Positions 3,848 to 47,099 of a stretch of 64,000 nt of DNA are shown here, piece by piece. The position numbers and the translations under genes are program-made. Below the pieces are notes generated by a model. That model ran no database searches. It was not told the origin of the DNA and saw nothing but the letters and a program-made list of their open reading frames with translations. Source of the DNA: Enterobacter phage phiEap-3; sequence record KT321315.1; one strand, written 5' to 3'. Position 1 is the stretch's first letter, and each line of letters starts with the position of its first letter.

Positions 3848-6064
3848 TTAGAGTTTGACTTCTTTTTCTTCCAGAACGATTGTGCAATCAAATTTCACAT
3901 CTTTCCAGAATTCCGCTGCAACGATATCTGTTGCGGTAACGCTTACGCTGGTTTCTTCGAAATCCAGATCCGCAAACCATGCGTGTCCGACTACAATACC
4001 GTACATTACACGACTCAGGCGATTATTAAGGGCGCGAACCTCTTTAATAGTTTCCTTTGTCTGCTTATCAAGATACTCGATCAGGTCATTCTTGTCAAGC
4101 GCTTCGATCTCTTTAGATACGGTATCGTAAGCCCACAGAATGATCAGGTCACCATTGTTGAGTTTCTTTTTACCTTCGGCGCGTTTTGCAACGGTAGCAG
4201 CAACAGCCGGAAGTGATGAAACGCCTTTGATCTTCACGTTCAGTTCTTTCGACATGTAAACATCAGTCGATTCTGTGCGCTCAACCTTCGGAGAGAAGCC
4301 GTAATCACGGATCCCTTGCTCAGACAACCATTCACCAGCCGCCTCGCCAAAACGCTGTTTAAGCCCTTCTGCGTTGCGTAAACCAATCGCGTTATCACGG
4401 AAGAACTTCATTACTTTCTGACGGCCTTTCAGGATTTCCAGACGGACGTTATCAGCAACAAATTCCTTACCAGAAATACCGCGAGTCATCGAACGGTTAA
4501 CCAGAGGCAGAGAGGTAAAGTCAACCAGTACGGACATACGGTCTTCACCAATTTTAGCCAGCGGTTTGATAGTCAGACCAGAAGCACGTAAGTTTTTCAG
4601 AGTCGGAATATCGGTTTCCAGCGGAAGTACCTTAACGTTCACGATACCATCTTTAACAATGGTAAAGTTACGCACTTGTTTGGTTTCTACTTTTTCCGGC
4701 AATCCAAACTCTTTTTGTTTGCTTTCCGGAATAGTTACGTAACCTTGCAGATCCGTATTGATGGAAATGTTCGGACGGGAACTGTTACCCACCAGGTGTT
4801 TCACTGCAACTTTCGTTGTGGTTTGGGTAAATTCCGGTTTCCATACTTCGTGCGCTACCAGTTGAGCCGCCAGTGCTTTTCGTTCTTCCGGAGTAGAAGC
4901 ATTTGCAATCTGTTCTGACAGTTTATCCAGTGTATCATCATCTTTCTGGACAGTCTGACGGCCTGTACGATTGTACGCCCAGTGTTCAGAAGACAGGTCG
5001 ATCACTGTGTCGGTTTCTGCCAGCAGTTCGAGAGCATCAACCAGAGTAAACGCGTTTTCATCAGGAACCATGTTGTAATCAACACCATCCATCAGACGTT
5101 TAGCCGGATCAACAACCGCTTCGGAGATCATATCTTTAGCGTTTGAATAATCCTGTTTGGTAAAGCAGTTATCGTATGCTTTAATCAGACGCACATCACC
5201 CAGCTTTTTCAGAACTTTCCATGCCAGATCTGGATTCATGGTATGAAGCGCATGATACAGAACCACATACAGAACCTGTTCACCTTCTGCTGTTGCCGGA
5301 TCGAAGCCGTCAACGTCATTGATCGCGTTTTCACCCAGCGCCCAAATGTTTTTGATATGTTCCGGAACCAGAACAACACCATTTGCAGCATTCAGGACGT
5401 ACACACGGCCTTCATCCAGGTAGATCGCATGGGTTGCATCGCCAACTTTGACTTCAACACGTGCTGAGGTTTGCGCGGTAATGATTTCATCAAATGCAGG
5501 TACATACGCATCAAACCCTTCAACGAATTTGTGTAATGCGTTGGTTGCTTCCGCCATTTTTTCCAGCAGAGGACGGTTTACATAATAACCATATTCCAGG
5601 AAAGCAATGTTGTTAAACGTCAACGGCAGAGTAGAACACGCTTTCAGGATATCATCAGTACGCCAGCAGTTATCATAACCATCAGTCAGGAAGATCAGAC
5701 TGTTCAGATTGCCATTATCCGCTTGCAGATCGGTAGCGACTTCAACCGCCAGTTGCAGAGGTTCAACGAAGCCAGTACATCCGGTCGGACGCAGATAACG
5801 ATCGATAGCATCATTGATTTTGCTCAGGTCGGATACAGAGCTAACCTTTTCGCCCACGAATACAGAACCGAACTGACCACGGCTGGAGAAATACAGAATA
5901 GATACGGTATCATCCTGTTTAACCAGCGTTGCCAGGTTGTTTTTCAGGTGCTGACGAATGCGCGGGAGTTCGTTATACATCGATCCGGATACGTCACAAA
6001 CAAAAACGTGGTTAGTCGGGGTTGGTTTGGCTACGGCGTTTTTGAATTCAATGTTAGTGATCAT
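3848..6064 (-). CDS. von Willebrand factor A (VWA) domain protein, 738 aa
   Basis: N-terminal MIDAS motif (VFVCDVSGSM ... T ... FLTDGYDN), typical of a vWA fold. The C-terminal ~550 aa has no motif I recognise. Confidence 0.75.
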   Translation of the reverse strand: MITNIEFKNAVAKPTPTNHVFVCDVSGSMYNELPRIRQHLKNNLATLVKQDDTVSILYFSSRGQFGSVFVGEKVSSVSDLSKINDAIDRYLRPTGCTGFVEPLQLAVEVATDLQADNGNLNSLIFLTDGYDNCWRTDDILKACSTLPLTFNNIAFLEYGYYVNRPLLEKMAEATNALHKFVEGFDAYVPAFDEIITAQTSARVEVKVGDATHAIYLDEGRVYVLNAANGVVLVPEHIKNIWALGENAINDVDGFDPATAEGEQVLYVVLYHALHTMNPDLAWKVLKKLGDVRLIKAYDNCFTKQDYSNAKDMISEAVVDPAKRLMDGVDYNMVPDENAFTLVDALELLAETDTVIDLSSEHWAYNRTGRQTVQKDDDTLDKLSEQIANASTPEERKALAAQLVAHEVWKPEFTQTTTKVAVKHLVGNSSRPNISINTDLQGYVTIPESKQKEFGLPEKVETKQVRNFTIVKDGIVNVKVLPLETDIPTLKNLRASGLTIKPLAKIGEDRMSVLVDFTSLPLVNRSMTRGISGKEFVADNVRLEILKGRQKVMKFFRDNAIGLRNAEGLKQRFGEAAGEWLSEQGIRDYGFSPKVERTESTDVYMSKELNVKIKGVSSLPAVAATVAKRAEGKKKLNNGDLIILWAYDTVSKEIEALDKNDLIEYLDKQTKETIKEVRALNNRLSRVMYGIVVGHAWFADLDFEETSVSVTATDIVAAEFWKDVKFDCTIVLEEKEVKL

Positions 6065-6071
6065 AATTTTC

Positions 6072-6392
6072 TCATTTATAGGTAAATTTGATTAAAATTT
6101 CGTTTACTTTTTTGCTAATAATATCTAATGCATCATCGCATCCAAACTTACTACTCAACAATGAAACAAAATCATCCATCGTTGTTGTTTGAGACTCGCC
6201 AACGTCAAAAGACAGAGCGTAGGCAACAGGATTTTTAATCCTTACGATTTGAATAGTATACTCATTCAGGTCAAACCGTTCAAGATATTTTCGCAAAGAA
6301 AATAAATCAATCGGTACTGGTAGAGTTTGACTAAACGTTATTTCTTCCCCCAGTTGATAGGGGGGCATTTTTACACAGATTTCGTATTCCAT
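6072..6392 (-). CDS. hypothetical protein (106 aa)
   Basis: ORF; its stop overlaps the start of the upstream gene (6392). Confidence 0.4.
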   Translation of the reverse strand: MEYEICVKMPPYQLGEEITFSQTLPVPIDLFSLRKYLERFDLNEYTIQIVRIKNPVAYALSFDVGESQTTTMDDFVSLLSSKFGCDDALDIISKKVNEILIKFTYK

Positions 6393-7823: not shown

Positions 7824-7838
7824 ATAAACCTCACGAAA

Positions 7839-7860
7839 AAGCCCCTTTCGGGGCTTGATT
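7839..7860 (-). terminator. rho-independent terminator (agcccctttcggggct + T-run on the minus strand)
   Basis: GC hairpin immediately after the stop of 7863..8141, followed by TTTTT on the minus strand. Confidence 0.6.
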
Positions 7861-7862
7861 AA

Positions 7863-8141
7863 TCAATGTCCGAACACACCACGAATAGACTCTGCGAATG
7901 CATACAGTTCAGGATTTTTAGCTTTCACTGTTTCGATTTGCTCCAGAATGTAATCTGGTTTGTATTTCGCACCGAACCAGCAGTAAGAGAAAGAGCGATC
8001 CCACATGAACACGTTATAGTATTCACCGTTGCGAACTTCAACCATCACATAACCAGGATTAGAACCCAGCGGATAATCTTTCAGAAGATTGAATTTCGCG
8101 CCAGCACCAGTACATCCGTTAAACAGGTCATTAAAAGTCAT
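7863..8141 (-). CDS. hypothetical protein (92 aa)
   Basis: ORF with a leader resembling the conserved cgaaacgaaac leader motif. Confidence 0.45.
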   Translation of the reverse strand: MTFNDLFNGCTGAGAKFNLLKDYPLGSNPGYVMVEVRNGEYYNVFMWDRSFSYCWFGAKYKPDYILEQIETVKAKNPELYAFAESIRGVFGH

Positions 8142-8199
8142 GGTATGTTCCTTTTGTCAGTTTCGTTTCAACAAGGTCACTATACTATTCTTCTTTAGC

Positions 8200-9111
8200 C
8201 TATGCAAGCGCTTTTTTGATTTGTTTTGCAATTGCTTCGATCACCGGAACAGATACAGAGTTACCCGCTTGTTTGTACGCCTGTGTTTTGCTCTTATGCA
8301 TCTTGAATGAATCCGGAAATCCTTGCAACCGGAAACACTCGCGAGGTGATAACATTCGAGGGTTCTTACCTTCCTGCAATACCAGACATTGAACACCATC
8401 CTTATAGTATTGGGCTGTTATCGTCCCAGTACACACAGAATCAACTGTAACGGCCTGATAGCCAAACCCCTTACCGTTTGCCTTGTTTCGTTCTTTACGC
8501 TCTCTAAAGCCCTTCCAGGCACGATCTGATATGGTGTATTGATCATTATCCGGTTCGAGAATGTCGCCTACCCTTGTTGGGGTACGTGGAGGAATAGGAA
8601 AACTAAAGAACACCGGATCGCGAAAGCAGACAATAAACACACGCTCTCTTCGTTGAGGCAATCCAAAATCTTTTGTATTCATTACCTGATAATGGATATC
8701 GTATCCTTCGTCCTGTAACAGCCTGTAGATGGTTTTAAACGTGTTTCCCTTGTCATGAGTTAATAGCTGGGGAACATTCTCAAAGAACAGCACAGAGGGC
8801 TTTTTAGCCCGTATAATGCGGAGTATTTCAAAGATGATAGTACCGCGAGGATCTAACATGCCCTGTTTTAACCCTGCTTTACTAAACGCCTGACAAGGAA
8901 ACCCCGCCAACAGGATATCGTGATCAGGCACATCGTTTTCATCAATGGCGAATATATCACCCTGAATATTTTCATCGCCCCAGTTATCAGCATATGTTTG
9001 TTGTGCATGTTTATCGATTTCAGACGTTAAAAGGCATTCGACCCCGCCGAATGCCTTATCGAAACCGAGCCTCACGCCACCAACACCAGCGCAAAGGTCA
9101 ATTATTTTCAT
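8200..9111 (-). CDS. DNA (cytosine-5)-methyltransferase
   Basis: Canonical m5C MTase motifs: motif I DLCAGVGG, motif IV GFPCQAFS (catalytic PC), motif VI ENVPQLL, motif VIII QRRERVF, and a C-terminal GNSVSVPV. Confidence 0.9.
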   Translation of the reverse strand: MKIIDLCAGVGGVRLGFDKAFGGVECLLTSEIDKHAQQTYADNWGDENIQGDIFAIDENDVPDHDILLAGFPCQAFSKAGLKQGMLDPRGTIIFEILRIIRAKKPSVLFFENVPQLLTHDKGNTFKTIYRLLQDEGYDIHYQVMNTKDFGLPQRRERVFIVCFRDPVFFSFPIPPRTPTRVGDILEPDNDQYTISDRAWKGFRERKERNKANGKGFGYQAVTVDSVCTGTITAQYYKDGVQCLVLQEGKNPRMLSPRECFRLQGFPDSFKMHKSKTQAYKQAGNSVSVPVIEAIAKQIKKALA

Positions 9112-9377
9112 ACGTCGAAATCAACCTCATCGATTTTGTATGATTCTTCGCCAATATCAGCCCATAGCTGAATATTCACGCTTTTTGCATCACGATAAAG
9201 AGATTGACCGCAAAGCCCACCTGTATAACAAGTTTCTGTAATCTCGTTAACTTCCAGGCGGAGGCTATCGCGCATAATTTTAACAACAGCCTGTTCCAGT
9301 GTAACCGCGTCTGGGTTTTTGGTATCACCCAATACTACATCTTTAACGTTCAAAATAACATCACTCATTATCGCCAC
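9108..9377 (-). CDS. hypothetical protein (89 aa), coupled to the MTase
   Basis: ORF overlapping the MTase start (ATGA). Confidence 0.45.
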   Translation of the reverse strand: MAIMSDVILNVKDVVLGDTKNPDAVTLEQAVVKIMRDSLRLEVNEITETCYTGGLCGQSLYRDAKSVNIQLWADIGEESYKIDEVDFDV

Positions 9378-9613
9378 TCCGTTTCAATTCCGTGTTTGTA
9401 TGCGTCAACGCCCAGAGGGGTGATCACTAAACACATATCAGTATTTTTCGTTGGTGAACTAAACGCCATTGATGCGTAACCTTTTTGAATCAGGGAATCA
9501 CGCCCTGATTTACTGGGAACATCGTTGAAATCTAAATCCAACATTTTTGACGAGTATCCGTAAAGTTTACACAAAACATCAATCTCAGCGCCGGATAATT
9601 TCGGATATGTCAT
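9368..9613 (-). CDS. hypothetical protein (81 aa)
   Basis: ORF overlapping both neighbours. Confidence 0.45.
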   Translation of the reverse strand: MTYPKLSGAEIDVLCKLYGYSSKMLDLDFNDVPSKSGRDSLIQKGYASMAFSSPTKNTDMCLVITPLGVDAYKHGIETEWR

Positions 9614-10617
9614 TTGTAATACCTCACAACATGTTCAGAATACACACGTTCAATGAAATCATTCCAGAAATCGCGATCAACTTCTTTCGGATAACCAGAT
9701 ACAGCCGCCAGCTTTTCAACTTCACACATCGTTGATTCTAGCGCCTCTTGTACGGTTGCGAAAGGAACACCGCCAGCTTTAACCATTTTCAAAAATGCGC
9801 TGTCCGGAAGAGGATACACAATATCACCTTCTTTGAAAATCTGGATCAATTGCATACCACCGCGCAAAGCATGAGAAAGAGCTTTCCAGTCGATCCCGTT
9901 GTTGGCTTCTGCTTGCCGTGCGCGTTCCCCGTATTCATCCCAGAGTTTATACACGGATTTCTTCATTTCCGCTACGGTGATCGTAGACTGGAATTTACGC
10001 CCCAGAACTTCATAAAATTCCTGACAACCTGATTTCATTGTTTTGTCTGTAACGAATCGACAAAACTCGTTGGTCGGGAATCGGTTAGAAATCTCACCAA
10101 CTTTGATGCGCTTGCCGTAGTTAGATTCATCCACGTTACCCAGCAATGATGTACCATACCAGCAATCAGGAATCGTCTGTAACACATCGACAACTTCACG
10201 CAGTGCAGCCAGGCGAGAGCCTTTAACGCCATACTTCGCCGCTTGCTTACGAACATAACCAAACAGGCCAGTGAGTTCCGTAGTGTAGAAGCGTGAACGG
10301 TTAGCGCGGAGATATTGCCAGATATCAGAGTTAGCGATCAGTTTGCTATCATCTGCATGAAGCATATCAATCGCCACGGTGTCACCATCACATGCGAGGC
10401 TGATAAACTTTTGCAGACTGTAAATCTGACGATCTACGTCATTAACACCGTTCTTTGAGTTTTTATCGCCAGTTGATGTATCAATAGACTTCTTCGCAGT
10501 GCCTAACAGGATTTCGCGAGGATGAGGGAGATAGATCCCTTTGTAGTCTTTATCGCTTGTTGGTGTTTCCAGTCCGTACAGGTGAGAACCGAATACGGTT
10601 TCCATAATCATTTTCAT
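9610..10617 (-). CDS. predicted nucleotidyltransferase (Pol-beta superfamily; resembles the RlaP/PF10127-type NTase)
   Basis: N-terminal GSHLYGLETPTSDKDYKGIY fits the NTase-fold G[SG]x9-13 Dx[DE] motif, as in the PF10127 family. 335 aa. Confidence 0.55.
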   Translation of the reverse strand: MKMIMETVFGSHLYGLETPTSDKDYKGIYLPHPREILLGTAKKSIDTSTGDKNSKNGVNDVDRQIYSLQKFISLACDGDTVAIDMLHADDSKLIANSDIWQYLRANRSRFYTTELTGLFGYVRKQAAKYGVKGSRLAALREVVDVLQTIPDCWYGTSLLGNVDESNYGKRIKVGEISNRFPTNEFCRFVTDKTMKSGCQEFYEVLGRKFQSTITVAEMKKSVYKLWDEYGERARQAEANNGIDWKALSHALRGGMQLIQIFKEGDIVYPLPDSAFLKMVKAGGVPFATVQEALESTMCEVEKLAAVSGYPKEVDRDFWNDFIERVYSEHVVRYYK

Positions 10618-37593: not shown

Positions 37594-38123
37594 TAGCTCA
37601 TTCTCTTTTGTGAAGATACTACTTTTCCGTCAATTTCAACTTCCATATGAAGGAAGCCAAAAGTTGCCATACATGTAACCGCTTCATCACTATCGTTAGT
37701 ATAACCCAATTCAACCTCACCCAAGTTTGTTGGGAAGGCACCATAAAATCTAAATGTGGCGATCGTTTTCATCTGGGAGTTATCCAGGATATGCACAGCG
37801 AATGATTGCTTAGGATCATCCCACGCAACAGAGTTAAACTCGTTGTAATCGTTTGTGCTCAACATCCATATGTAAATCCCAAGATACGATCTCATTTCCT
37901 CATCGACTACAAAGCGGATCATCAAAGGATCAAACTCAAAAGCCGAACCAGGTACTTTACCTCGAACCATCATATTTGCAGGAATATCAACTGCTGGGAG
38001 GTTCATTGATGGTAGTGTAACCCCTTGAACTTGTAAAGTCAAACCTTTCATGTAACTGTTATCAGGAATATCAACCCGAAAATTTGTAGGCGAGATTTGG
38101 TTTAAAATCATTTCTGTAGACAT
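37593..38123 (-). CDS. 3: tail tube terminator / sheath stabiliser gp3
   Basis: 176 aa, the same length as T4 gp3. ATGA coupling with gene 1. Confidence 0.7.
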   Translation of the reverse strand: MSTEMILNQISPTNFRVDIPDNSYMKGLTLQVQGVTLPSMNLPAVDIPANMMVRGKVPGSAFEFDPLMIRFVVDEEMRSYLGIYIWMLSTNDYNEFNSVAWDDPKQSFAVHILDNSQMKTIATFRFYGAFPTNLGEVELGYTNDSDEAVTCMATFGFLHMEVEIDGKVVSSQKRMS

Positions 38124-38201
38124 AGGATCTCCTTTCCTCTATTTAGCGGGGAACGGGATCGAAGCGCCTGACGGGGTAATATAAAAATTTGAAGAAAGTA
38201 C

Positions 38202-38230
38202 TTGACCTTTTAAAATCTTTGATCTATAAT
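38202..38230 (+). promoter_or_regulatory. near-consensus sigma70 promoter P1 (TTGACC-17-TATAAT, GATC abutting the -10)
   Basis: TTGACC at 38202..38207 and TATAAT at 38225..38230, 17-nt spacer. In the AT-rich gp3/insert intergenic region. Confidence 0.6.
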
Positions 38231-38318
38231 AATTATTAATTAAAATTTTATCAAAAAGATCTAACAAGATCAAGTAAAATTTAATAAATAATTTATCAAA
38301 AATTTTTTAGATCTGATC

Positions 38319-38348
38319 TTGAATTCATAAATTTTATGATCTATAATA
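38319..38348 (+). promoter_or_regulatory. sigma70 promoter P2 (TTGAAT-18-TATAAT), repeat of the tgatcTATAAT -10 element
   Basis: TTGAAT at 38319..38324 and TATAAT at 38343..38348. Confidence 0.5.
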
Positions 38349-38492
38349 TATTAATATTTTATTTTATCATAAATTTTTATGAAGATCAATACCTAGATCT
38401 AATAAATTTTATGCTTTTTCTGAAAACTTTTCCTTTACCCCGTCACTAAATACTGGTACTATATTCCCATATTGGAAATCAGGAAAAACAAA

Positions 38493-39281
38493 ATGACTCA
38501 CTTGAAAAAATTCAAAGAATTTCTGACCGAAGGTAAAACCCTCGCTCGTACTGTAGCACGTGGTCAACGTGCCAAAACTTCCGATAAACATTCAATCGGT
38601 TTTCTTCACTTCAAACATGGTTCTGATTTCGAAGTTTTAGCACCGGATTCTCACGATCTGGCATACTTCGGTAAAAACATTGTACGTTTGAAAGGTATGA
38701 CTACTGGTAAAGTTCAAGCGGCTTATGTCGATTGGGCTAAAGGTACTGTTTCTTTCTACAGTGGCAATCCGGATGATGATCTGGATTTCGACAAACCAGA
38801 AAAATTCAAAGCTGCTACTCTGTATGAAGAGGCGGAAGAAAATCTGGATCTGTATAACCAGTTAGCAGAAGATTTCGAAATCGAGATCCCTATGGATGAA
38901 GCTCTGGTGAAAGGTAAAGTTTACAAACTCCCAAGCAACGATATGCGTCTTCTGTACACTGGGCGTTCTAAAACTAAAGCAAGCGGTGAATATGCAGTGT
39001 TTACCGTAGTTGATGCTTCCGGCAAACCTCGCCTAGTATCTGGTAAAAAATTCACCCAAGAATATAAAGGCGATATGGTTTCTAAACTGGTTCTGGCTGA
39101 ATCCGAAGATCTGAATGAAGCGGCTAAAGGCATTCGCGAAAAAGTTATTGCTGTGATGGTGAAACGCGGGTTTAACGAAAAAGATGCAGAAAAGATGGTT
39201 GACAAAAACCTGAAAGATGCTATGAAAGTTAGACCTGGTGCGACCCCTGGCAAACTTGCAGAAATAGTTAGCACCCTGTAA
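38493..39281 (+). CDS. hypothetical Cys-free, Lys/Glu/Asp-rich protein (262 aa) inserted between gp3 and gp2 in divergent orientation
   Basis: ATG at 38493 with RBS AGGA. The ORF-track start at 38472 is TTG. Strong codon bias (cgt/ggt/ctg/aaa/gaa). Own promoters and terminator. Confidence 0.6.
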   Translation: MTHLKKFKEFLTEGKTLARTVARGQRAKTSDKHSIGFLHFKHGSDFEVLAPDSHDLAYFGKNIVRLKGMTTGKVQAAYVDWAKGTVSFYSGNPDDDLDFDKPEKFKAATLYEEAEENLDLYNQLAEDFEIEIPMDEALVKGKVYKLPSNDMRLLYTGRSKTKASGEYAVFTVVDASGKPRLVSGKKFTQEYKGDMVSKLVLAESEDLNEAAKGIREKVIAVMVKRGFNEKDAEKMVDKNLKDAMKVRPGATPGKLAEIVSTL

Positions 39282-40705: not shown

Positions 40706-41260
40706 GTGCTATTTTCATACTTCCCGCCTGTTGATTACAAAGGCACCCAGACAACTGATATTTTCCGAGACTATCGATTTTATTTTAATCGTGTGATTGG
40801 AAAATATAAAACCCGTAGTTACCAGATAACAGGTACACTACGACCTGAACAACTTGCAGAATCATTATATGGAAACCAGCAATACTACTGGATCCTGTTG
40901 ATGCTTAACTCTGTTTATGACCCTTTCTATGGTTGGATCACCGATCAGGAAGCCGCGTATCAGTGCGCTATACAGCGTTATTCTGAGGTTGGCGGTGAAC
41001 AGGTTCTGTATCATGTAGATGAAAACAACAACAAGTATTATAACCTTGTCGAAGACCCCAATAACCCTGGTCATTGGTATGACAAAGGTGACAAACCAAT
41101 GCTGTATTTACAGTATCAAGGTGTATTAGCTCCTGTAGATATTTATGAAGATGCAGTGTTGCAAAATGAAGCAAAACGAACAATAAAAATCATTAGTCCG
41201 TCTGACATCCAGGCGTTTCTGAATGATTTTATTAAAGAAATGGAAAAGGCTAACTCATGA
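40706..41260 (+). CDS. 53: baseplate wedge subunit gp53
   Basis: GTG start. Collinear with T4 gp53 as I remember it (MLF..F.P..Y, DIFRNY, YWVLLM/YWILLM, DPYYGWIT/DPFYGWIT, QEAAYQ, YHV.EN). Confidence 0.8.
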   Translation: MLFSYFPPVDYKGTQTTDIFRDYRFYFNRVIGKYKTRSYQITGTLRPEQLAESLYGNQQYYWILLMLNSVYDPFYGWITDQEAAYQCAIQRYSEVGGEQVLYHVDENNNKYYNLVEDPNNPGHWYDKGDKPMLYLQYQGVLAPVDIYEDAVLQNEAKRTIKIISPSDIQAFLNDFIKEMEKANS

Positions 41261-43026
41261 AATTAGGCGGAAATTTACACTCCCCTTTCTTTGATGGGGT
41301 GGTTGAAAACGTTGATGATCCGCGCGGGTTGGGCCGTGTTCAAGTCCGTGTATTTGGACAACACCCAGCCCAAAAACAAAAATCCGATGCAATCGGTGTT
41401 CCTGTTGAAGATTTACCCTGGATGATGCCTATTCAGGATATTAGAAGCGCTGCGATCTCTGGTGTGGGCTTCTCTCCAACTGGTATCACTCGCGGATCCT
41501 TTGTTGTTGGTTATTGGCGTGACAAATGGCACCAAGATGGTATGATAATCGGTACTGTCGCTGGTGAATATGTCGAACAACCAGACACACAGAAAGGTTT
41601 TTGCGATCCTATGGGTGAATACCCTCGCTATGTTGGTAACGATGTTAACTCCCTTGCTTTAGGTGGTTTGAAAGGCAAAGGATCATCAAGTGTCATCATT
41701 CGTGATTCAAACACAAGCATAGCAGTAAACCCAGACGATCGCCCACTGGATGAGATACCAGAAGATAACCGCCCTGATACGGGTGGATTTACGATCGAAA
41801 AGATGCTCAAGCAGGATGAAGGGATCCGCACACGCTGGTATACAGACAGTGAAGGATATCCGACAATTGGGATCGGGCATTTGCTTATCCGCGAAAAGAC
41901 TCGCGACACGGCAAAAATTAACGCTGCGATCAGTAAGGCGGTAGGTCGAGAAGTAACAAACGGGACAATAACGGCAGAAGAGGTATCAACCTTATTTGCT
42001 CAAGATTTAGCCAAAGTAAGATCTGATATTCAGAGAACAGCTAACGTCCGTGAAGTGTATGTGAACCTCAACCGTCCTCGTCAAATGGCGATCGAAAACA
42101 TGTCGTTTCAAATGGGCGTCGGTGGTGTTGCTAAATTCACCAATACCCTAAAAGCGATGAAAAATGAAGATTGGCAAGCGGCTTATAATGGTCTTCGAAA
42201 TTCACTATGGGCTAGTCAAACTCCAGGCCGTTCTTCTCGCGTGTCTAAAATCGTCCTCACGGGCAACCTTGAATCATATGGGGTACAAGTACCAGATCCG
42301 GAAGGGCGCTCTCTGAGTGCTGCTTACGCTGCGTATAACGGTGCTACATTGCTGGCGGCTAGTCCGGAAGATCCGTTTACTCCTGGTGATACCCGTGTGA
42401 TGTTTGAAGAACCAGCATCATCGTATAATGCTGAATATCCGTACAATATGGTTTTTGAATCGAGATCCGGACACATCCAGGAATTCGATGATACCCCAGG
42501 ATACGAACGATATAACCGCGTTCACCCAGCAGGAAGTTACGAAGAAATTCGCCCGGATGGAACCCGCGTTGTTAAAATCGTAGGGGATGATTATCAAATT
42601 GTGATGCAGGGCCGTAAACTCAACGTTAAAGGCAACTTGCAGGTAGTTATTGAAGGTGATGCGTTCATTTACAACATGGGTAACGTTCAACAGACGGTTG
42701 ATGGTAACGTAACTGAATTTGTTCGTGGCAACGTTCAACAAACGGTTGAAGGTGAGTACGTTGGTCTGATTAAAGGCAATGCTGAACTAACTGTAAACAA
42801 AGATGCAACAGTTAACGTTGATCAGAATCTTACCGCAAATGTGAAACAGAATGCAACCGTGGCTGTAACAGAAGACGCAACGGTCACTGCAAAAAATGCG
42901 AAAATTGAGATTGAAGAAACGATGGATATCGGTGCTAAAGATATCAATATCAAAGCAACGAATAACACGTTTATTGATTCTGGCGCATTAACAAAAATCA
43001 CTGGCGGCACCGTCCAAGTGGGGTAA
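41257..43026 (+). CDS. 5: baseplate hub subunit and tail lysozyme gp5
   Basis: N-terminal OB-fold region. Central T4-lysozyme-like domain (DEGIRTRWYTDSEGYPTIGIGHLL ... MSFQMGVGGVAKFTN). C-terminal beta-helix repeats (VKGNLQVVIEGDA..., VNVDQNLTANVKQNATVAV). Confidence 0.9.
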   Translation: MKLGGNLHSPFFDGVVENVDDPRGLGRVQVRVFGQHPAQKQKSDAIGVPVEDLPWMMPIQDIRSAAISGVGFSPTGITRGSFVVGYWRDKWHQDGMIIGTVAGEYVEQPDTQKGFCDPMGEYPRYVGNDVNSLALGGLKGKGSSSVIIRDSNTSIAVNPDDRPLDEIPEDNRPDTGGFTIEKMLKQDEGIRTRWYTDSEGYPTIGIGHLLIREKTRDTAKINAAISKAVGREVTNGTITAEEVSTLFAQDLAKVRSDIQRTANVREVYVNLNRPRQMAIENMSFQMGVGGVAKFTNTLKAMKNEDWQAAYNGLRNSLWASQTPGRSSRVSKIVLTGNLESYGVQVPDPEGRSLSAAYAAYNGATLLAASPEDPFTPGDTRVMFEEPASSYNAEYPYNMVFESRSGHIQEFDDTPGYERYNRVHPAGSYEEIRPDGTRVVKIVGDDYQIVMQGRKLNVKGNLQVVIEGDAFIYNMGNVQQTVDGNVTEFVRGNVQQTVEGEYVGLIKGNAELTVNKDATVNVDQNLTANVKQNATVAVTEDATVTAKNAKIEIEETMDIGAKDINIKATNNTFIDSGALTKITGGTVQVG

Positions 43027-43030
43027 TTAA

Positions 43031-45097
43031 ATGATTATGGATTATGAATCAATAATTGATGGAATTATGCAAAATTATCAGCATCCTTGTGATGCTGAGA
43101 TCCCCGCTGGCTATTATCGGCGGGTTATCTGGCAAGGGCATACAGAAAATTATCCGGCTGTTGGGGTTGAGTGGGATACCGAGATAATCAAAATCGGTAC
43201 TCATCTTTATACTCAAGAACCGTTCGGACATAGAAGCACGGATCTACCTGTTGTCAATTCACCGGGAACAGATCCAAATACCGGACAGCCAACAGGGATC
43301 CTTGTTCCGAAGATTGGCTATTATTTCAACACTCAAGCCGAAATTGATGCTTACATTACATCAATTGGTGCAACTAAAATCAATGGTGGTAATGATTGGT
43401 ACGGCGCGGATCTGTCAAAATCAAACCTATACAAAAACCCTGGCGAACTGGCTATGTATAAGGTTGAAAACAGTGGCGGGTATCTTTCCGGAACAAACCC
43501 TGTATGTGATGCTCGCATACGTCAGGCGTATAATCAGGACACTGGCGCATTCACCAATATTGATTATTATTGGAATGGTAATCGTATAGCCTATATGAAG
43601 CATGACGAAACAGGGGCGCACCAGTGCAAATATACGGGTATGCAGGTTAACACCAACGCAGATACAAGCATTCCTCCTGTTCCTCCTGCAATGCCTTCCA
43701 CTTATGGGGCATTACCGAGTGAATTAAGCCGTGCTGATATTTCATGTATTCCGGCAACTGTTGGTTTCGCATATACAAATATCAGTGATGCTATGTTACA
43801 GGCATGGAACGAAACCCGTAATACGTTCAAGCTACAGTTTAACATGTTAACGGGTGCTGTACAGAATGGATTCGGGATCGCGACGATGTTTGATGGTTTA
43901 TCCGTATCGATGGAAGAAGTAATGTCGGGGGCGCTCGCATTGTCACAGCAAGCATGGCAAACTGCTATGAAAGTTTTCAGACAAGTGATTAGCGCTGCAT
44001 TTAACATTATCGGTGGTGCGTGGGGATTGATTAATCAGTTCTTGCCTCAAGTAACCATCTTAGGTGTTGCGATCAACATTTACGATCTGGTGTTTGGTGA
44101 TAATTCTGTTCAGACTTTGAAAGATGCATTTAATGCAATCATCAAATCCGGACAACAAACATATGAAACCGTCATAAACGCAATATACGGGGCCATAGGA
44201 AGCGCATACAATTACTCTGTGGAATATGTCAAAGCTGGCGCTCGCGACCTTGTAGATGCGTGTAGCGCGTTATTTGATTGGTGTTTAACGATGTTCCAAA
44301 ACGGTTGCGTTGCATTAATCGACTTATACGGTCGGATCATGCAAACATGGGCTATCCCTCCGGAAGTTCCAAACCCGTTATGGTCTGCGGTGCTGGCTAT
44401 CCGTAACATCATGATGCAAATCAAACCACTTGATATAATTCTGGGCGGTAACTTCCCTGGATTTACTGCAATGGATTTGTATCAACAAGCACAGGAAAAA
44501 GTCAAGGCTTTTGTTGATGAGTCATACGAACAGATCCGAGGGCTTTATGAACAAGGGCAGGAACTTTACAAAACGTTAAAAAATCAGATTTTCGAGCGTG
44601 ATGCAATTCAGAGAAAATTCAACCAGTACTTAAACTGGATGTGGGGCGCTGTAACAGACGAAGCAACAGCGGCTTATCAATCTGCATTGGATGCTGCAAA
44701 CGCTGCTGTAGCTGCAACACAGGCCGCGTATGACGCTATACAGGAACAGATTGGAACTCTACAAGATGCAATGAAAGATACATACAGCATGGCGATGGAA
44801 GAATTAAAGAAATTGCCTTTGATGAGTACAATAAACGAGTTTTTAGGATTCTGTGGTGTCGCATTTGACGATCTTCTCAAGTCATATGAAAATGCGATTA
44901 CTGGTGCTCAGTCTCTGTACAAAAATTTCATTGATAGTTCGCGCTCGTTTAAAGATCACTGCAAAGTAATCTATAACCAAATTTGTACGCTGGCGTTGAG
45001 TAAAGTCACACAATATGTGAATAAATTGCTGTCTCTCATAGGATTAGCAATCAACTTTGGTTCGATTAGTGTATGTGTTCCAGTACTGAAATACTAA
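43031..45097 (+). CDS. large hypothetical protein (688 aa) in the gp5.x / PAAR-tip position between gp5 and gp6
   Basis: Uninterrupted ORF with a 4-nt gap after gp5. N-terminal ~250 aa globular region. C-terminal ~430 aa of hydrophobic/amphipathic and Ala/Gln-rich helical segments. No PAAR or lysozyme motifs recognised. Confidence 0.65.
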   Translation: MIMDYESIIDGIMQNYQHPCDAEIPAGYYRRVIWQGHTENYPAVGVEWDTEIIKIGTHLYTQEPFGHRSTDLPVVNSPGTDPNTGQPTGILVPKIGYYFNTQAEIDAYITSIGATKINGGNDWYGADLSKSNLYKNPGELAMYKVENSGGYLSGTNPVCDARIRQAYNQDTGAFTNIDYYWNGNRIAYMKHDETGAHQCKYTGMQVNTNADTSIPPVPPAMPSTYGALPSELSRADISCIPATVGFAYTNISDAMLQAWNETRNTFKLQFNMLTGAVQNGFGIATMFDGLSVSMEEVMSGALALSQQAWQTAMKVFRQVISAAFNIIGGAWGLINQFLPQVTILGVAINIYDLVFGDNSVQTLKDAFNAIIKSGQQTYETVINAIYGAIGSAYNYSVEYVKAGARDLVDACSALFDWCLTMFQNGCVALIDLYGRIMQTWAIPPEVPNPLWSAVLAIRNIMMQIKPLDIILGGNFPGFTAMDLYQQAQEKVKAFVDESYEQIRGLYEQGQELYKTLKNQIFERDAIQRKFNQYLNWMWGAVTDEATAAYQSALDAANAAVAATQAAYDAIQEQIGTLQDAMKDTYSMAMEELKKLPLMSTINEFLGFCGVAFDDLLKSYENAITGAQSLYKNFIDSSRSFKDHCKVIYNQICTLALSKVTQYVNKLLSLIGLAINFGSISVCVPVLKY

Positions 45098-45128: not shown

Positions 45129-47054
45129 ATGGCTACTGCTAAGACTAAGACTGTCAAAAAACAGATTAACCAAATCCCCGATATTTTTATCGGGGGTACT
45201 TTCGAAGAAATTAAAACAGATCTGATTGATTGGCTGGGTGGACAAGAAGAGTTTAAGGATTACGATTTTTCCGGCTCGCGAATGAACGTACTGATCGACC
45301 TTCTGTCGTATGCTACTCTTTATATTCAGCAGATGGGTAACACGGCTCTATTTGAATCGTTTATTCGCACGGCTGCATTGCGTAGTTCTGTTGTACAGTC
45401 TGCTCAAGATCTGGGATATATGCCAGATTCTCGCACGGCTGCAAGCACAGCAGTAATGATTACGGCTGCTAACCCACTGACCCCAACATCGATCCGTATC
45501 CCGCGCGGTACAAAATTCATCGGTACTGTAAAGAATACAGACAGTTATTCTTTTGTTGTATCAGATGACGTTGTTATCGTTCGTGATAGTAATAACAACT
45601 ATACATCAATGCTGAACCTGGTGCAAGGCCGTTTAGTTCGTACTGAACTAATTTATGACGGTTCGAGTATCCTGATCCGAGATCCAAACATTGACCGTAG
45701 TCAGGTACGTTTAACTGTAAACGGCGCACAATGGGAAGACTGGACAAACGAAAGCATTGTAAACGCAACAGGCGCAAGCACGATTTACTACATGCGTGAA
45801 ACTGTTGATGGACATACCGAAGTTTATTTCGGTGAAGGTGAAGCAAGTCAACAAGTGGCGGGTGGCGCATTAACCGCTGAATATATCGGGGGCTTGAAAC
45901 CTGCTAATGGATCGACTATCGTTATTGAATACCTGTCAACCGATGGGGAAGCGGCTAACGGTGCAAAAGATTTTATCTATGTCGATACATTAACCAATAT
46001 TAGCATCACGGCGATTAAAGAGAACCCAACCAACACCCCTGATTATGTCGGTGCTGATGGTGGTGGTGATCCAGAAGATATCGAGCGTATTCGAGAACTG
46101 GCCCCTGTTATGCGTGAAACACAACGCCGTTGTGTAACTGCATCGGATTATGAATCATTCCTGTCTCACAGATTTGGTTCTATCATCCAGGCGGTACAGT
46201 GCTTTACTGATAACGAAAAACCTGGTTATGCTTTCATTTCTGTTAAACCAAAGTCAGGTTTGCGCCTAACATCGGTACAGAAAGAAGATATGCAAACGTA
46301 TCTTTCGAAATATAACCTCGCGACGATCACCCCGTCGATTATGGATCCTAACTATCTGTATATTGTGCAATCTGTCAAAGTAACGTATGATATCAGTAAG
46401 TTGACGGAATCAGAGGAATGGTTACGCGGTCAGGTTATTTCATCGATCGACTCTTACTATACTGACAACGTTGAAATTTTCAACAAATCTTTCAGTGTAT
46501 CTAAGATGTTGACTTATGTCGATCAGTCTGATACTTCTATTATCGGTTCGGAAGCAGATATTAAATTGCTCCGTGAAATTGACAACTATTACAGCGCCCC
46601 TATGTCTGGGATTCATTTCTTGAACCAGGTGGAATCTAAATCAATCATTTCCAGTACGTTCAAGTTCACCAACGAACAAGACGAAAGTTATGATGTTCGT
46701 TATGCTTCTACGGAAATGGATCAGGATGGTAACGCAAAAATTGTAATAGGCCCGTTCAAGGATGGGGATATTTCGATTGCTGCTTATACAGGCGATGACT
46801 TTGAAAAATTAACAGATGCAGGAACCCGTAATAAATATTACGAAGTTGGATCGGTTTCTCATTACACCGATTTCATTAGCTTTGACCTGGGCGTTCTGAA
46901 CGTATCCGCCGATAGTTTCAGCGCTGCTTATATCGAGCTAAATGCAAAACCTCTCGAAGAAACCATTTTTACTCGCGATGGTTCGTTGATCGTGTTTGAA
47001 AATGACCTGCGTCCTCAATATACCACATTGACTATGAATCCTATCAGTCAATAA
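45129..47054 (+). CDS. 6: baseplate wedge subunit gp6
   Basis: 641 aa. Matches T4 gp6 (IPDIFIGGTFEEIK, RLNVL.DLL.Y, YYMRETVDGHTEVYFGEGE, CVTASDYESF, RDGSLIVFENDLRPQY). Confidence 0.85.
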   Translation: MATAKTKTVKKQINQIPDIFIGGTFEEIKTDLIDWLGGQEEFKDYDFSGSRMNVLIDLLSYATLYIQQMGNTALFESFIRTAALRSSVVQSAQDLGYMPDSRTAASTAVMITAANPLTPTSIRIPRGTKFIGTVKNTDSYSFVVSDDVVIVRDSNNNYTSMLNLVQGRLVRTELIYDGSSILIRDPNIDRSQVRLTVNGAQWEDWTNESIVNATGASTIYYMRETVDGHTEVYFGEGEASQQVAGGALTAEYIGGLKPANGSTIVIEYLSTDGEAANGAKDFIYVDTLTNISITAIKENPTNTPDYVGADGGGDPEDIERIRELAPVMRETQRRCVTASDYESFLSHRFGSIIQAVQCFTDNEKPGYAFISVKPKSGLRLTSVQKEDMQTYLSKYNLATITPSIMDPNYLYIVQSVKVTYDISKLTESEEWLRGQVISSIDSYYTDNVEIFNKSFSVSKMLTYVDQSDTSIIGSEADIKLLREIDNYYSAPMSGIHFLNQVESKSIISSTFKFTNEQDESYDVRYASTEMDQDGNAKIVIGPFKDGDISIAAYTGDDFEKLTDAGTRNKYYEVGSVSHYTDFISFDLGVLNVSADSFSAAYIELNAKPLEETIFTRDGSLIVFENDLRPQYTTLTMNPISQ

Positions 47055-47091: not shown

Positions 47092-47099
47092 TATAAATA
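47092..47099 (+). promoter_or_regulatory. T4-type late promoter TATAAATA upstream of gp7
   Basis: Exact TATAAATA, 35 nt upstream of the gp7 ATG, immediately after a terminator. Confidence 0.65.

Follow-up and report, generated by a model that had tools for sequence, protein, structure and literature searches.

The window analyzed here is a stretch of 64,000 nucleotides from Enterobacter phage phiEap-3 (KT321315.1), a phage that groups with the Slopekvirus of the KP15/Miro type. According to Pfam, its baseplate locus encodes gp53 (PF11246), gp5 (Gp5_OB, Phage_lysozyme and Gp5_C) and gp6 (five gp6 domains), with a 688-aa ORF lying between gene 5 and gene 6. The features of this interval are the following:

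41257..43026, + strand: gp5 (589 aa; Gp5_OB, Phage_lysozyme, Gp5_C), hub spike of the baseplate and tail lysozyme, presumed binding partner of the 688-aa product
42814..43026, + strand: part of gene 5 coding for the beta-helix tip, about residues 520-589, ending in ...LTKITGGTVQVG (from gp5 comparison)
43016..43023, + strand: SD-like AAGTGGGG within the 3' end of gene 5, with 7 nt between it and the ATG of the ORF (from the sequence)
43031..45097, + strand: 688-aa ORF with an ATG start, encoding a putative large non-PAAR central-spike tip protein (phrog_5296 member; ortholog of RB43 orf205w and Helios gp203)

The ORF is present exactly as the initial annotation had described it, co-oriented with gp5 and separated from the gp5 stop (which ends at 43026) by only 4 nt (TTAA), and 31 nt lie between its end and the ATG of gp6 at 45129. 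The presence of AAGTGGGG ahead of the ORF suggests that its translation may be coupled with that of gene 5, and the junctions between gp5 and the homologous ORFs of RB43, Bp7, PM2 and L018 are comparably tight. The GC content of the ORF reveals no anomaly, and the T4 late promoter TATAAATA is not enriched in the window, and none occurs directly ahead of gp53, of gp5 or of the 688-aa ORF. In T4, as had also been stated, the same slot between genes 5 and 6 is occupied by short ORFs, namely 5.1 (164 aa), segC, 5.3 (56 aa) and 5.4 (97 aa), the last of which encodes the PAAR protein. The ORF is not a wedge component, which agrees with the first reading of the sequence, and occupies instead the 5.x/PAAR spike-tip slot in tight coupling to gp5.

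The product of the 688-aa ORF belongs to phrog_5296, to which it aligns from residue 3 to residue 688 over 685 profile positions (1272 bits, E=0). Its counterpart in RB43, ORF205w (AAX78727), is 78.6% identical across residues 1-687 and is encoded at the same locus, as is gp203 of Helios; neither of these two members of the family presents any substantive difference from the protein studied here. Homologs of this large ORF were found in 215 phage records (62 clusters at 90% identity) and, with a sole exception of 580 aa, range in length from 664 to 764 aa. Three of the records label the large ORF as a 'tail length tape measure protein'. The comparison of gp5 neighborhoods across T4-like genomes that had been recommended as a check was carried out, and it places the large ORF directly 3' of gp5 in seven lineages: Slopekvirus, Pseudotevenvirus, Dhakavirus, Bragavirus, Nanhuvirus and two divergent metagenomic lineages, one of them with a lysozyme-less gp5. 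Among the loci compared, it follows immediately after gp5 in RB43, Bp7, PM2, LPCS28, L018 and L019, and in Nanhuvirus, where gp6 is located elsewhere, the large ORF still adjoins gp5.

Of the genes that T4 carries in this slot, those for gp5.4 and gp5.1 are missing. Searches with T4 gp5.4 by tblastn and with profile HMMs of gp5.4 and gp5.1, covering all six frames of the window and of the whole KP15 genome, returned only matches with E > 0.3, and for gp5.4 none below an E of 0.9. The absence of gp5.4 extends over the full genome in KP15 and over ±3.5 kb only in Bp7, PM2 and LPCS28, and for RB43, RB16 and Lw1 it is taken from a preprint (PMC12407873). On the other hand, another 1,471 phage records do contain gp5.4, accompanied by gp5.1 in every inspected locus, and among the genomes examined the large ORF and gp5.4 are mutually exclusive. 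A PAAR gene moved elsewhere in the KP15 genome is ruled out by the six-frame tblastn and HMM nulls; KP15_15, a 93-aa 'tail protein' that qualified as a tip candidate by size, resembles a LysM-type protein by eye. Nor does the large ORF itself resemble them: a search for PAAR (PF05488) yielded no Pfam family match at E ≤ 0.1, and its comparison by hhalign with a six-member gp5.4 profile and with gp5.1 produced probabilities of 0.02 and 0.1, respectively, the latter indicating no homology. These profile searches agree with the earlier remark that no PAAR, lysozyme or ADP-ribosyltransferase signature is visible in the protein.

An indication of a partnership between the large ORF and the spike comes from gp5 itself. 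The gp5 of the window is 50% identical to that of T4, and the body of gp5 tracks taxonomy: that of Bp7 is 60-71% identical to gp5 of the T4 group and 41-49% identical to those of the window, RB43, PM2 and LPCS28. The final 65-70 residues or so, however, sort by tip type and not by phylogeny, with identities of 40-73% inside the large-ORF group and of 15-28% to the PAAR group. In the window, this segment is 73% identical to that of RB43 and 15-21% identical to PAAR-type gp5, and the crossover from phylogeny to tip type falls at about residue 520-535. The gp5 tip that is paired with the large ORF is about 15 residues longer than the PAAR-type tip and unrelated to it in sequence, and the C-terminus of all seven partner gp5 proteins inspected (7/7) reads (T/S)G(G/A)(T/N)V(Q/V/S)VG. 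On these alignments, the tip segment of gp5 is co-inherited with the large ORF, although such co-inheritance could in principle result from linkage alone.

A role for this family at the spike tip has been put forward in two recent works. Mattenberger et al. (bioRxiv 2025; PMC12407873) suggested that orf205w is a novel tip of the spike in place of gp5.4, the gene for which is missing from RB43, RB16 and Lw1. Their cryo-EM reconstruction of the RB43 baseplate at 17.7 Å differs from that of T4 solely in a larger density at the spike tip, into which the orf205w model fits, and their attempt at recombinant complex formation failed (PMC12407873). Given that the map has a resolution of 17.7 Å and C6 symmetry imposed, the tip density carries no identification of the protein. 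A 2026 paper in Viruses (PMC13611949) presents an AF3 model of the (gp202)3-gp203 complex of Klebsiella phage Helios, a Slopekvirus; in this model, the contact is hydrophobic and resembles that of gp5 with gp5.4, and helix 631-670 is placed in a coiled-coil core atop the gp5 tip. The residue numbers given there (gp5 Gly583-Gly589; gp203 Ile327, Trp440 and Ile670) fit the proteins encoded in the window. Of the candidate roles named by the initial annotation, delivery at the spike tip is the one that draws support, from the published cryo-EM and AlphaFold studies (PMC12407873, PMC13611949) as well as from the co-variation of the gp5 tip. No virion proteomics of any member of the family was found in the literature; the papers retrieved either report no mass spectrometry on a family member or deal with a Jiaodavirus, which carries gp5.4.

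An AF2 model of the 688-aa protein (pLDDT 87.8, pTM 0.78) begins with an alpha/beta domain, some 220-270 residues in length, and is all-helical from there on, the same layout as in the RB43 and Helios counterparts. The long helices of the model match those of the coiled-coil core described in PMC13611949. The parts of the protein, all encoded on the + strand, are the following:

43031..43840, + strand: N-terminal alpha/beta domain, residues 1 to about 270, of which 1-205 are well modelled (AF2)
43907..44011, + strand: helix 293-327, strand 1 of 3 of the coiled-coil core (AF2; Phe287-Ile327 in Fig. 15c of PMC13611949)
44039..44095, + strand: FLPQVTILGVAINIYDLVF (337-355), conserved and hydrophobic, which the model folds into a short beta-hairpin and not into a TM helix (KD19 = 1.60, AF2)
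44237..44350, + strand: helix 403-440, strand 2 of 3 of the coiled-coil core (AF2; Glu398-Trp440 in PMC13611949)
44468..44770, + strand: helices 480-534 and 543-580, paired antiparallel in a long hairpin
44618..44656, + strand: NQYLNWMWGAVTD, residues 530-542, the turn that links the two longest helices, with the family motif QYLxGMW
44936..45034, + strand: helix 636-668, strand 3 of 3 of the coiled-coil core (AF2; Lys631-Ile670 in PMC13611949)
45035..45094, + strand: LIGLAINFGSISVCVPVLKY, the hydrophobic tail at the C-terminus, which includes strand 679-687 (KD19 = 1.91, AF2)

The fold is not the small conical beta fold of PAAR type. The N-terminal domain, which has no match to any known fold, contains an invariant motif (W123-Y-G-A-D127...K130...E139...Y143...E146-N147..G149), and residues 121-140 make up its most conserved block. 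Its first 260 residues had been characterized as poor in Cys and His, a description that does not hold, as they include four Cys (C20 and C199 being invariant) and six His. Helix 636-668 is among the most conserved parts of the whole protein (KDxCKxIYNQIxTLALSKVTQWVNKLL). The helical hairpin 480-580, on the contrary, is Ala/Gln-rich and variable in sequence; in the model it is presumed to form a distal needle, with the conserved aromatic loop at its apex (530-542) as the presumed distal tip, which may correspond to the 'loop at the tip' of PMC13611949. The C-terminal tail is presumed to form part of the base touching the gp5 tip, the exact residues involved being conjectural. The two peptide strings that had been quoted as hydrophobic helix and coiled coil are indeed present in the translation (residues 320-356 and 547-581), but the hydrophobic helices are not transmembrane in the confident model, where 337-355 is the short beta-hairpin just mentioned and 667-685 comprises the end of a core helix and the terminal strand.

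Taken with the occupancy of the slot, these results make it likely, in our view, that the 688-aa product is a virion protein capping the blunt C-terminal end of gp5, that is, a large non-PAAR tip that replaces gp5.4 of T4 and that probably also stands in for gp5.1. A spike-tip function is here inferred, not demonstrated. The protein would be translated from the late message of gp5, probably by coupling, and a single chain would dock through its hydrophobic base on the triangular tip of the gp5 trimer. From there, an intramolecular three-helix coiled coil (293-327, 403-440 and 636-668) would prolong the threefold axis of the spike, and the variable hairpin 480-580 would reach out to the conserved aromatic apex loop (QYLxGMW). 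Upon sheath contraction, the large tip would be the first part of the phage at the outer membrane and would enter the periplasm together with the spike. That a virion would hold a single copy, which residues would make the contact and how the protein would be oriented are taken from the published models or presumed.

Several known systems invite comparison with this arrangement. T4 gp5.4 (PDB 4KU0), encoded with gp5.1 in the same slot, is presumed to engage the same surface of its partner, which the final beta-strands of the gp5 trimer provide, and to share the role of a membrane-attacking apex. It is, however, a beta-cone of 97 aa (plus about 165 aa of gp5.1), whereas the 688-aa protein is mostly alpha-helical and has no detectable homology to it. 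The UpfB protein of phage P1 forms an alpha-helical tripod on the PAAR protein UpfC, a comparison drawn in PMC13611949, and thereby shares with the large tip a helical spike extension that bears a distal loop. Unlike the three copies of UpfB that sit on a PAAR protein, the large tip is predicted to be a single chain placed directly on gp5 with no PAAR, and no P1 protein appeared at E ≤ 1 in a profile search of PDB sequences with the 688-aa ORF. In a similar vein, T6SS PAAR proteins with a C-terminal extension or toxin share the concept of an enlarged tip carried into the target on a VgrG/gp5-like spike, but these retain the PAAR adaptor and the protein analyzed here has neither PAAR nor a detectable toxin domain.

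A 76-kDa asymmetric cap far exceeds what is needed to sharpen a spike, which suggests an additional function, and any roles of the protein beyond tip formation, among them those of effector, channel and adhesin named by the initial annotation, are candidate roles. One proposal, possible although on balance doubtful, is that a single chain mimics the threefold symmetry in a non-PAAR cap that also bears a functional payload, located in the N-terminal domain or in the apex and hairpin. Under this joint proposal, the N-terminal domain might bind or modify a component of the envelope, or else the aromatic apex and the hydrophobic hairpin might engage the membrane to provide a route for the DNA. We regard as unlikely a membrane-active ejected protein, akin to an alpha-pore-forming toxin or a T3SS translocator, that would ride on the spike and refold past the outer membrane, with its amphipathic helices or hydrophobic hairpin inserting into a membrane to aid a DNA conduit; such a function would come on top of a location at the tip and is compatible with it.

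Decidedly unlikely is an envelope-recognition or enzymatic module mounted on the tip, in which the N-terminal domain would bind or cleave the inner core of the LPS, peptidoglycan or a similar target and would turn the tip into a second device for receptor binding or for lysis. Such a module is in line with a confidently folded domain that resembles no known fold and carries an invariant cluster of polar and aromatic residues (W123, Y124, G125, A126, D127, K130, E139, Y143, E146, N147 and G149), and with the T4 precedent, for which the preprint (PMC12407873) reports that gp5.4 affects fitness and that deep-rough LPS mutants cannot be injected with DNA in its absence. No activity of this domain is backed by a family, fold or motif match, however, and its invariant residues may be merely structural or may touch the helical part. 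Highly unlikely, in turn, is a non-virion assembly factor, which would assist the gp5 trimer or the hub as chaperone or scaffold, co-evolve with the gp5 C-terminus and be released either before or after assembly. The co-variation and linkage evidence shows only that the protein partners with the gp5 tip, without placing it in the particle, and both the lack of a proteomic detection in the literature and the failed recombinant complex of the RB43 study are compatible with such a factor. Against it, RB43 particles present an extra density exactly at the spike tip with no gp5.4 to explain it, T4-type gp5 trimers fold without any such factor, and the strong conservation of the entire 688-residue chain, which extends to an apex loop remote from the predicted base, is more in keeping with a structural role than with a transient chaperone.

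A second or relocated tape measure, or tail-length protein, the reading expressed by the label in the three records cited above, is effectively refuted: the long Ala/Gln-rich amphipathic helices that the protein does share with tape-measure proteins (PhageMin_Tail, TMP_2, TMP_3 and T4 gp29) account in composition for the resemblance noted initially, for the weak PHROG matches with TMP families (the best of them over residues 252-657, E 4.6e-9) and for the TMPs among the weak matches of an exhaustive search, but these matches are confined to apolipoprotein-like helices outside PhageMin_Tail and TMP_3, the 688-aa ORF has no TMP Pfam domain, its model shows a folded alpha/beta domain of 200 residues and a compact bundle instead of an extended TMP, it lies in the spike-tip slot and not in the tube-initiator cluster, and KP15 encodes a canonical gp29 elsewhere (KP15_88, 593 aa, phrog_7361 and phrog_1283, beside gp48 and gp54).

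The large tip that we favor is a genuine and unusual feature, and the idea of a large tip is already described in the 2025-2026 literature. To this, the present analysis adds a wider distribution (Dhakavirus, Bragavirus, Nanhuvirus and metagenomic lineages), a mosaic junction inside gene 5, a monomer model of higher confidence, an N-terminal domain without a known fold and the rejection of the tape-measure label, correcting misleading annotations as 'tape measure' or 'baseplate hub'. The spike tip is the first contact of a contractile tail with the host envelope, and a 76-kDa helical, non-PAAR tip shows that evolution can exchange this position as a cassette, one that takes in the last 70 or so residues of gp5. 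Its carriers amount to about 215 sequenced phages, among them many phages of Klebsiella, Enterobacter, Cronobacter and Proteus considered for therapy, and knowledge of what the tip does could matter for host range and for resistance that arises by changes in LPS. If the payload proposal is true, contractile injection systems would possess at least two unrelated tip architectures, the second of which could be searched for beyond the T4-like phages.

The 688-aa ORF that the initial annotation had placed between gp5 and gp6 was recovered by translation of the window, and both peptide strings cited for it lie in the encoded protein:

43031..45097, + strand, large ORF of 688 uninterrupted codons

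It starts 4 nt past the gp5 stop codon, preceded by the SD-like sequence AAGTGGGG within the 3' end of gene 5, and ends 31 nt before a gp6 harboring all five gp6 Pfam domains. The upstream gp5, itself preceded by gp53, comprises 589 aa with Gp5_OB, Phage_lysozyme and Gp5_C domains (Pfam) and is 50% identical to T4 gp5. In T4, the same interval holds 5.1 (164 aa), segC, 5.3 (56 aa) and 5.4 (97 aa, PAAR). GC and base composition are uniform across the region. The large ORF is genuine, an unusual feature in a baseplate of the T4 type. Its product is acidic (pI 4.8), and the only inaccurate detail of the initial annotation was a 'Cys/His-poor' N-terminal region, since residues 1-260 contain 4 Cys and 6 His; two cysteines of this region are invariant across the family.

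The exact T4 late-promoter octamer occurs three times in the 64 kb, which does not exceed chance expectation:

47092..47099, + strand, TATAAATA, just upstream of gp7
15108, - strand, TATAAATA
37067, - strand, TATAAATA

None of gp53, gp5 and the large ORF is preceded by a copy in this exact-octamer search of the 64-kb window, and hence the T4 consensus may not apply to the late promoters of this phage group. Two further genes were recorded. A 269-aa ORF (38472..39281, + strand; KP15_152, 'hypothetical protein') is the sole plus-strand gene in the interval flanked by gp3 and gp2, late genes of the minus strand; it follows an AT-rich stretch (window 38000-38500, 28% GC), and in KP15 a bidirectional terminator follows KP15_152. 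KP15_100 (7827-10043 of KP15 locus L003, near window 4150-6370 by offset) encodes a 738-aa hypothetical protein among small early-type genes, annotated with a MIDAS (von Willebrand A-like) metal-ion-dependent adhesion site.

Specialists arrived at the same reading of the large ORF in 2025-2026, its function being so far only proposed. No gene 5.4 ortholog is present in RB43, RB16 or Lw1, and the counterpart of the T4 5.1-5.4 locus is filled by orf205w (~690 residues; 1-220 mixed alpha/beta, the remainder helical), of which a low-confidence AlphaFold model can be fitted to the tip density of a 17.7 A cryo-EM map of the RB43 baseplate that is T4-like except for a bigger spike-tip protein; production of orf205w with gp5-beta was tried and failed (PMC12407873). 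The window ORF is orthologous to RB43 ORF205w, with 78.6% identity over the full length and the same position after gp5. In a 2026 AF3 model of the Slopekvirus Helios gp5 trimer (gp202) with gp203, the latter sits on the triangular tip of gp5 by a hydrophobic base, presents a triple coiled-coil core (Phe287-Ile327, Glu398-Trp440, Lys631-Ile670) and a distal-tip loop, and is proposed as a gp5.1 plus gp5.4 analogue (PMC13611949). Helios residue numbers match the window proteins exactly (gp5 of 589 aa ending G583-G-T-V-Q-V-G589; ORF residue 670 is Ile). The window finding therefore rediscovers an oddity that had been reported only shortly before, and the window holds one more copy of an already described gene.

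At the DNA level the window shares 99% identity with Klebsiella phages Miro, KP15, KP27 and PMBT1, members of the genus Slopekvirus, and the protein has tblastn matches in 215 phage records, with the following identities to the window ORF:

Slopekvirus members, at least 99%
Large Klebsiella/Enterobacter/Citrobacter/Cronobacter group and Pseudotevenvirus RB43, RB16 and Lw1, 78-81%
Cronobacter LPCS28 (Nanhuvirus), Dhakavirus (Bp7), Bragavirus (Proteus PM2, Pm5461) and Providencia PSTCR6, 41-47%

A 5.8-billion-sequence database yielded 62 family clusters at 90% identity, of 664-764 aa bar one 580-aa member, and no meaningful Pfam domain was found in any of them; the only full-length matches in an exhaustive HMMER search over 1.84 billion representatives were eight clusters at 50% identity, the rest being fragments. 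By these searches, the family is narrow and restricted to phages. It corresponds to phrog_5296 ('unknown function'), and GenBank labels are inconsistent (e.g. MZ612130, LC589952, PQ657799, PP889503, PP889458): most records say 'hypothetical protein', others 'baseplate hub structural protein' or 'tail length tape measure protein'.

In a synteny comparison of the kind suggested by the initial annotation, the large ORF lies directly 3' of gp5 in RB43, Bp7, PM2, LPCS28 and the two metagenomic members that diverge most. On contig Ga0620835_007198, a 389-aa gp5 (L018 219-1388) with OB domain and beta-helix but no lysozyme domain ends in ...FTGGTVVVG and lies directly upstream of P0063 (743 aa), the most divergent family member. 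Since the pairing is kept in LPCS28 even though gp6 is not downstream, the constant partner of the large ORF is gp5, not gp6. The wedge operon of LPCS28 is broken (L011 1711-5558 and downstream), with small opposite-strand genes and no gp6 after the intact gp5-tip pair. In Proteus phage PM2 (L010 7491-9061), the annotation gives gp7 two CDS in succession, so that the gene is either split or frameshifted.

The gp5 proteins of five large-ORF phages and six phages with the small PAAR tip gp5.4 were aligned (T4 numbering):

gp5 1-388 and 389-515, pattern follows taxonomy
gp5 516 to end, pattern follows tip type: 40-73% identity within the large-ORF group, 31-73% within the PAAR group, 15-28% between groups

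Over 1-388 and 389-515, Bp7 gp5 is 60-71% identical to T4, PKO111 and AS6 but 41-49% to the window, RB43, PM2 and LPCS28, and window gp5 is 59-66% identical to Krischvirus MIZ4; a sliding window puts the Bp7 switch at about residue 520-535. All seven gp5 C-termini beside family members read (T/S)G(G/A)(T/N)V(Q/V/S)VG, whereas five of six PAAR-type ones read DGSRI(D/N)xG (Acinetobacter phage Meroveus ends otherwise), and the large-ORF-type tip is ~15 residues longer. A body that follows taxonomy and a tip that follows tip type place a mosaic junction within gene 5, and by alignment the last ~65-70 gp5 residues are co-inherited with the large ORF, as expected of a binding pair.

By tblastn, T4 gp5.4, 5.1 and 5.3 had no match in the window or KP15, and profile HMMs, one built on six diverse gp5.4 sequences and one on six of gp5.1, found nothing below E = 0.3 when the window, the whole KP15 genome and four related loci were searched in six-frame translation. 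Elsewhere, gp5.4 is present in 1,471 phage records, accompanied by gp5.1 at every gp5.4 locus inspected. In Aeromonas phage Aes012 (L015 617-3794), an inversion splits gp53-gp5-gp5.1 (-) from gp5.4-gp6 (+), thereby keeping gp5.1 with gp5 and gp5.4 with gp6. A 93-aa 'tail protein' of the KP15 early-gene region (KP15_15; L007 11179-11460) was rejected as a PAAR candidate, looking by eye like a LysM-type peptidoglycan-binding protein.

An AlphaFold2 monomer of the window ORF, built from a 37-sequence alignment, was confident (pLDDT 87.8, pTM 0.78). The Foldseek check suggested in the initial annotation gave nothing significant against the PDB, and the N-domain is without any known fold. The predicted layout is alpha/beta to about residue 270, helices at 293-327, 403-440, 480-534, 543-580 and 636-668, and a strand at 679-687; three of these helices coincide with the Helios coiled-coil core. 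Conservation peaks at 121-140 (NDWYGADLSK), 321-340, 381-480 and 641-680 and reaches its minimum in the Ala/Gln-rich hairpin 481-580, where the turn joining the two longest helices retains QYLxGMW and may be the distal loop.

Membrane insertion after delivery is conceivable but has nothing specific in its support: the hydrophobic helices seen in the initial annotation do peak in the TM-helix range (Kyte-Doolittle 1.60 at 337-355 and 1.91 at 667-685), but they are modelled as a short hairpin and as a core-helix end plus terminal strand, not as membrane-spanning, and in the published model helix 631-670 belongs to the coiled-coil core on the gp5 tip (PMC13611949). Weak PHROG and exhaustive-search matches of the ORF to tape-measure proteins (TMPs), a likeness also drawn initially, are to real TMPs with PhageMin_Tail or TMP_3; these align outside those domains, in apolipoprotein-like helical stretches, and KP15 has a canonical gp29 (KP15_88, phrog_1283) beside gp48 and gp54, so that TMP identity was rejected and the TMP label of a few GenBank records is unsupported. 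Profile-profile comparison of the window ORF with gp5.4 was null, as it was with gp5.1, and a PAAR assignment was rejected, in agreement with the lack of a PAAR signature noted by eye.

The large ORF thus probably encodes a spike-tip-associated virion protein; the literature yielded no virion proteomics on a family member. The gene would be expressed together with gp5, to which it is tightly joined in all lineages. A single chain would cap the gp5 trimer via its hydrophobic base, the spike axis would be prolonged by an intramolecular coiled coil of three helices, and the variable helical hairpin would reach out to a conserved aromatic apex. The gp5-tip complex would be the leading point in sheath contraction and be carried into the periplasm with the spike, as was shown for P2 gpV (PMC12407873). 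A speculative idea is that the N-domain, which carries an invariant cluster of polar and aromatic residues, has a role of its own, in envelope binding or otherwise. To the published descriptions, the present analysis adds an N-domain without known fold, the rejection of TMP and PAAR assignments, a wider family distribution, and evidence for a mosaic gp5 tip co-inherited with the large ORF.
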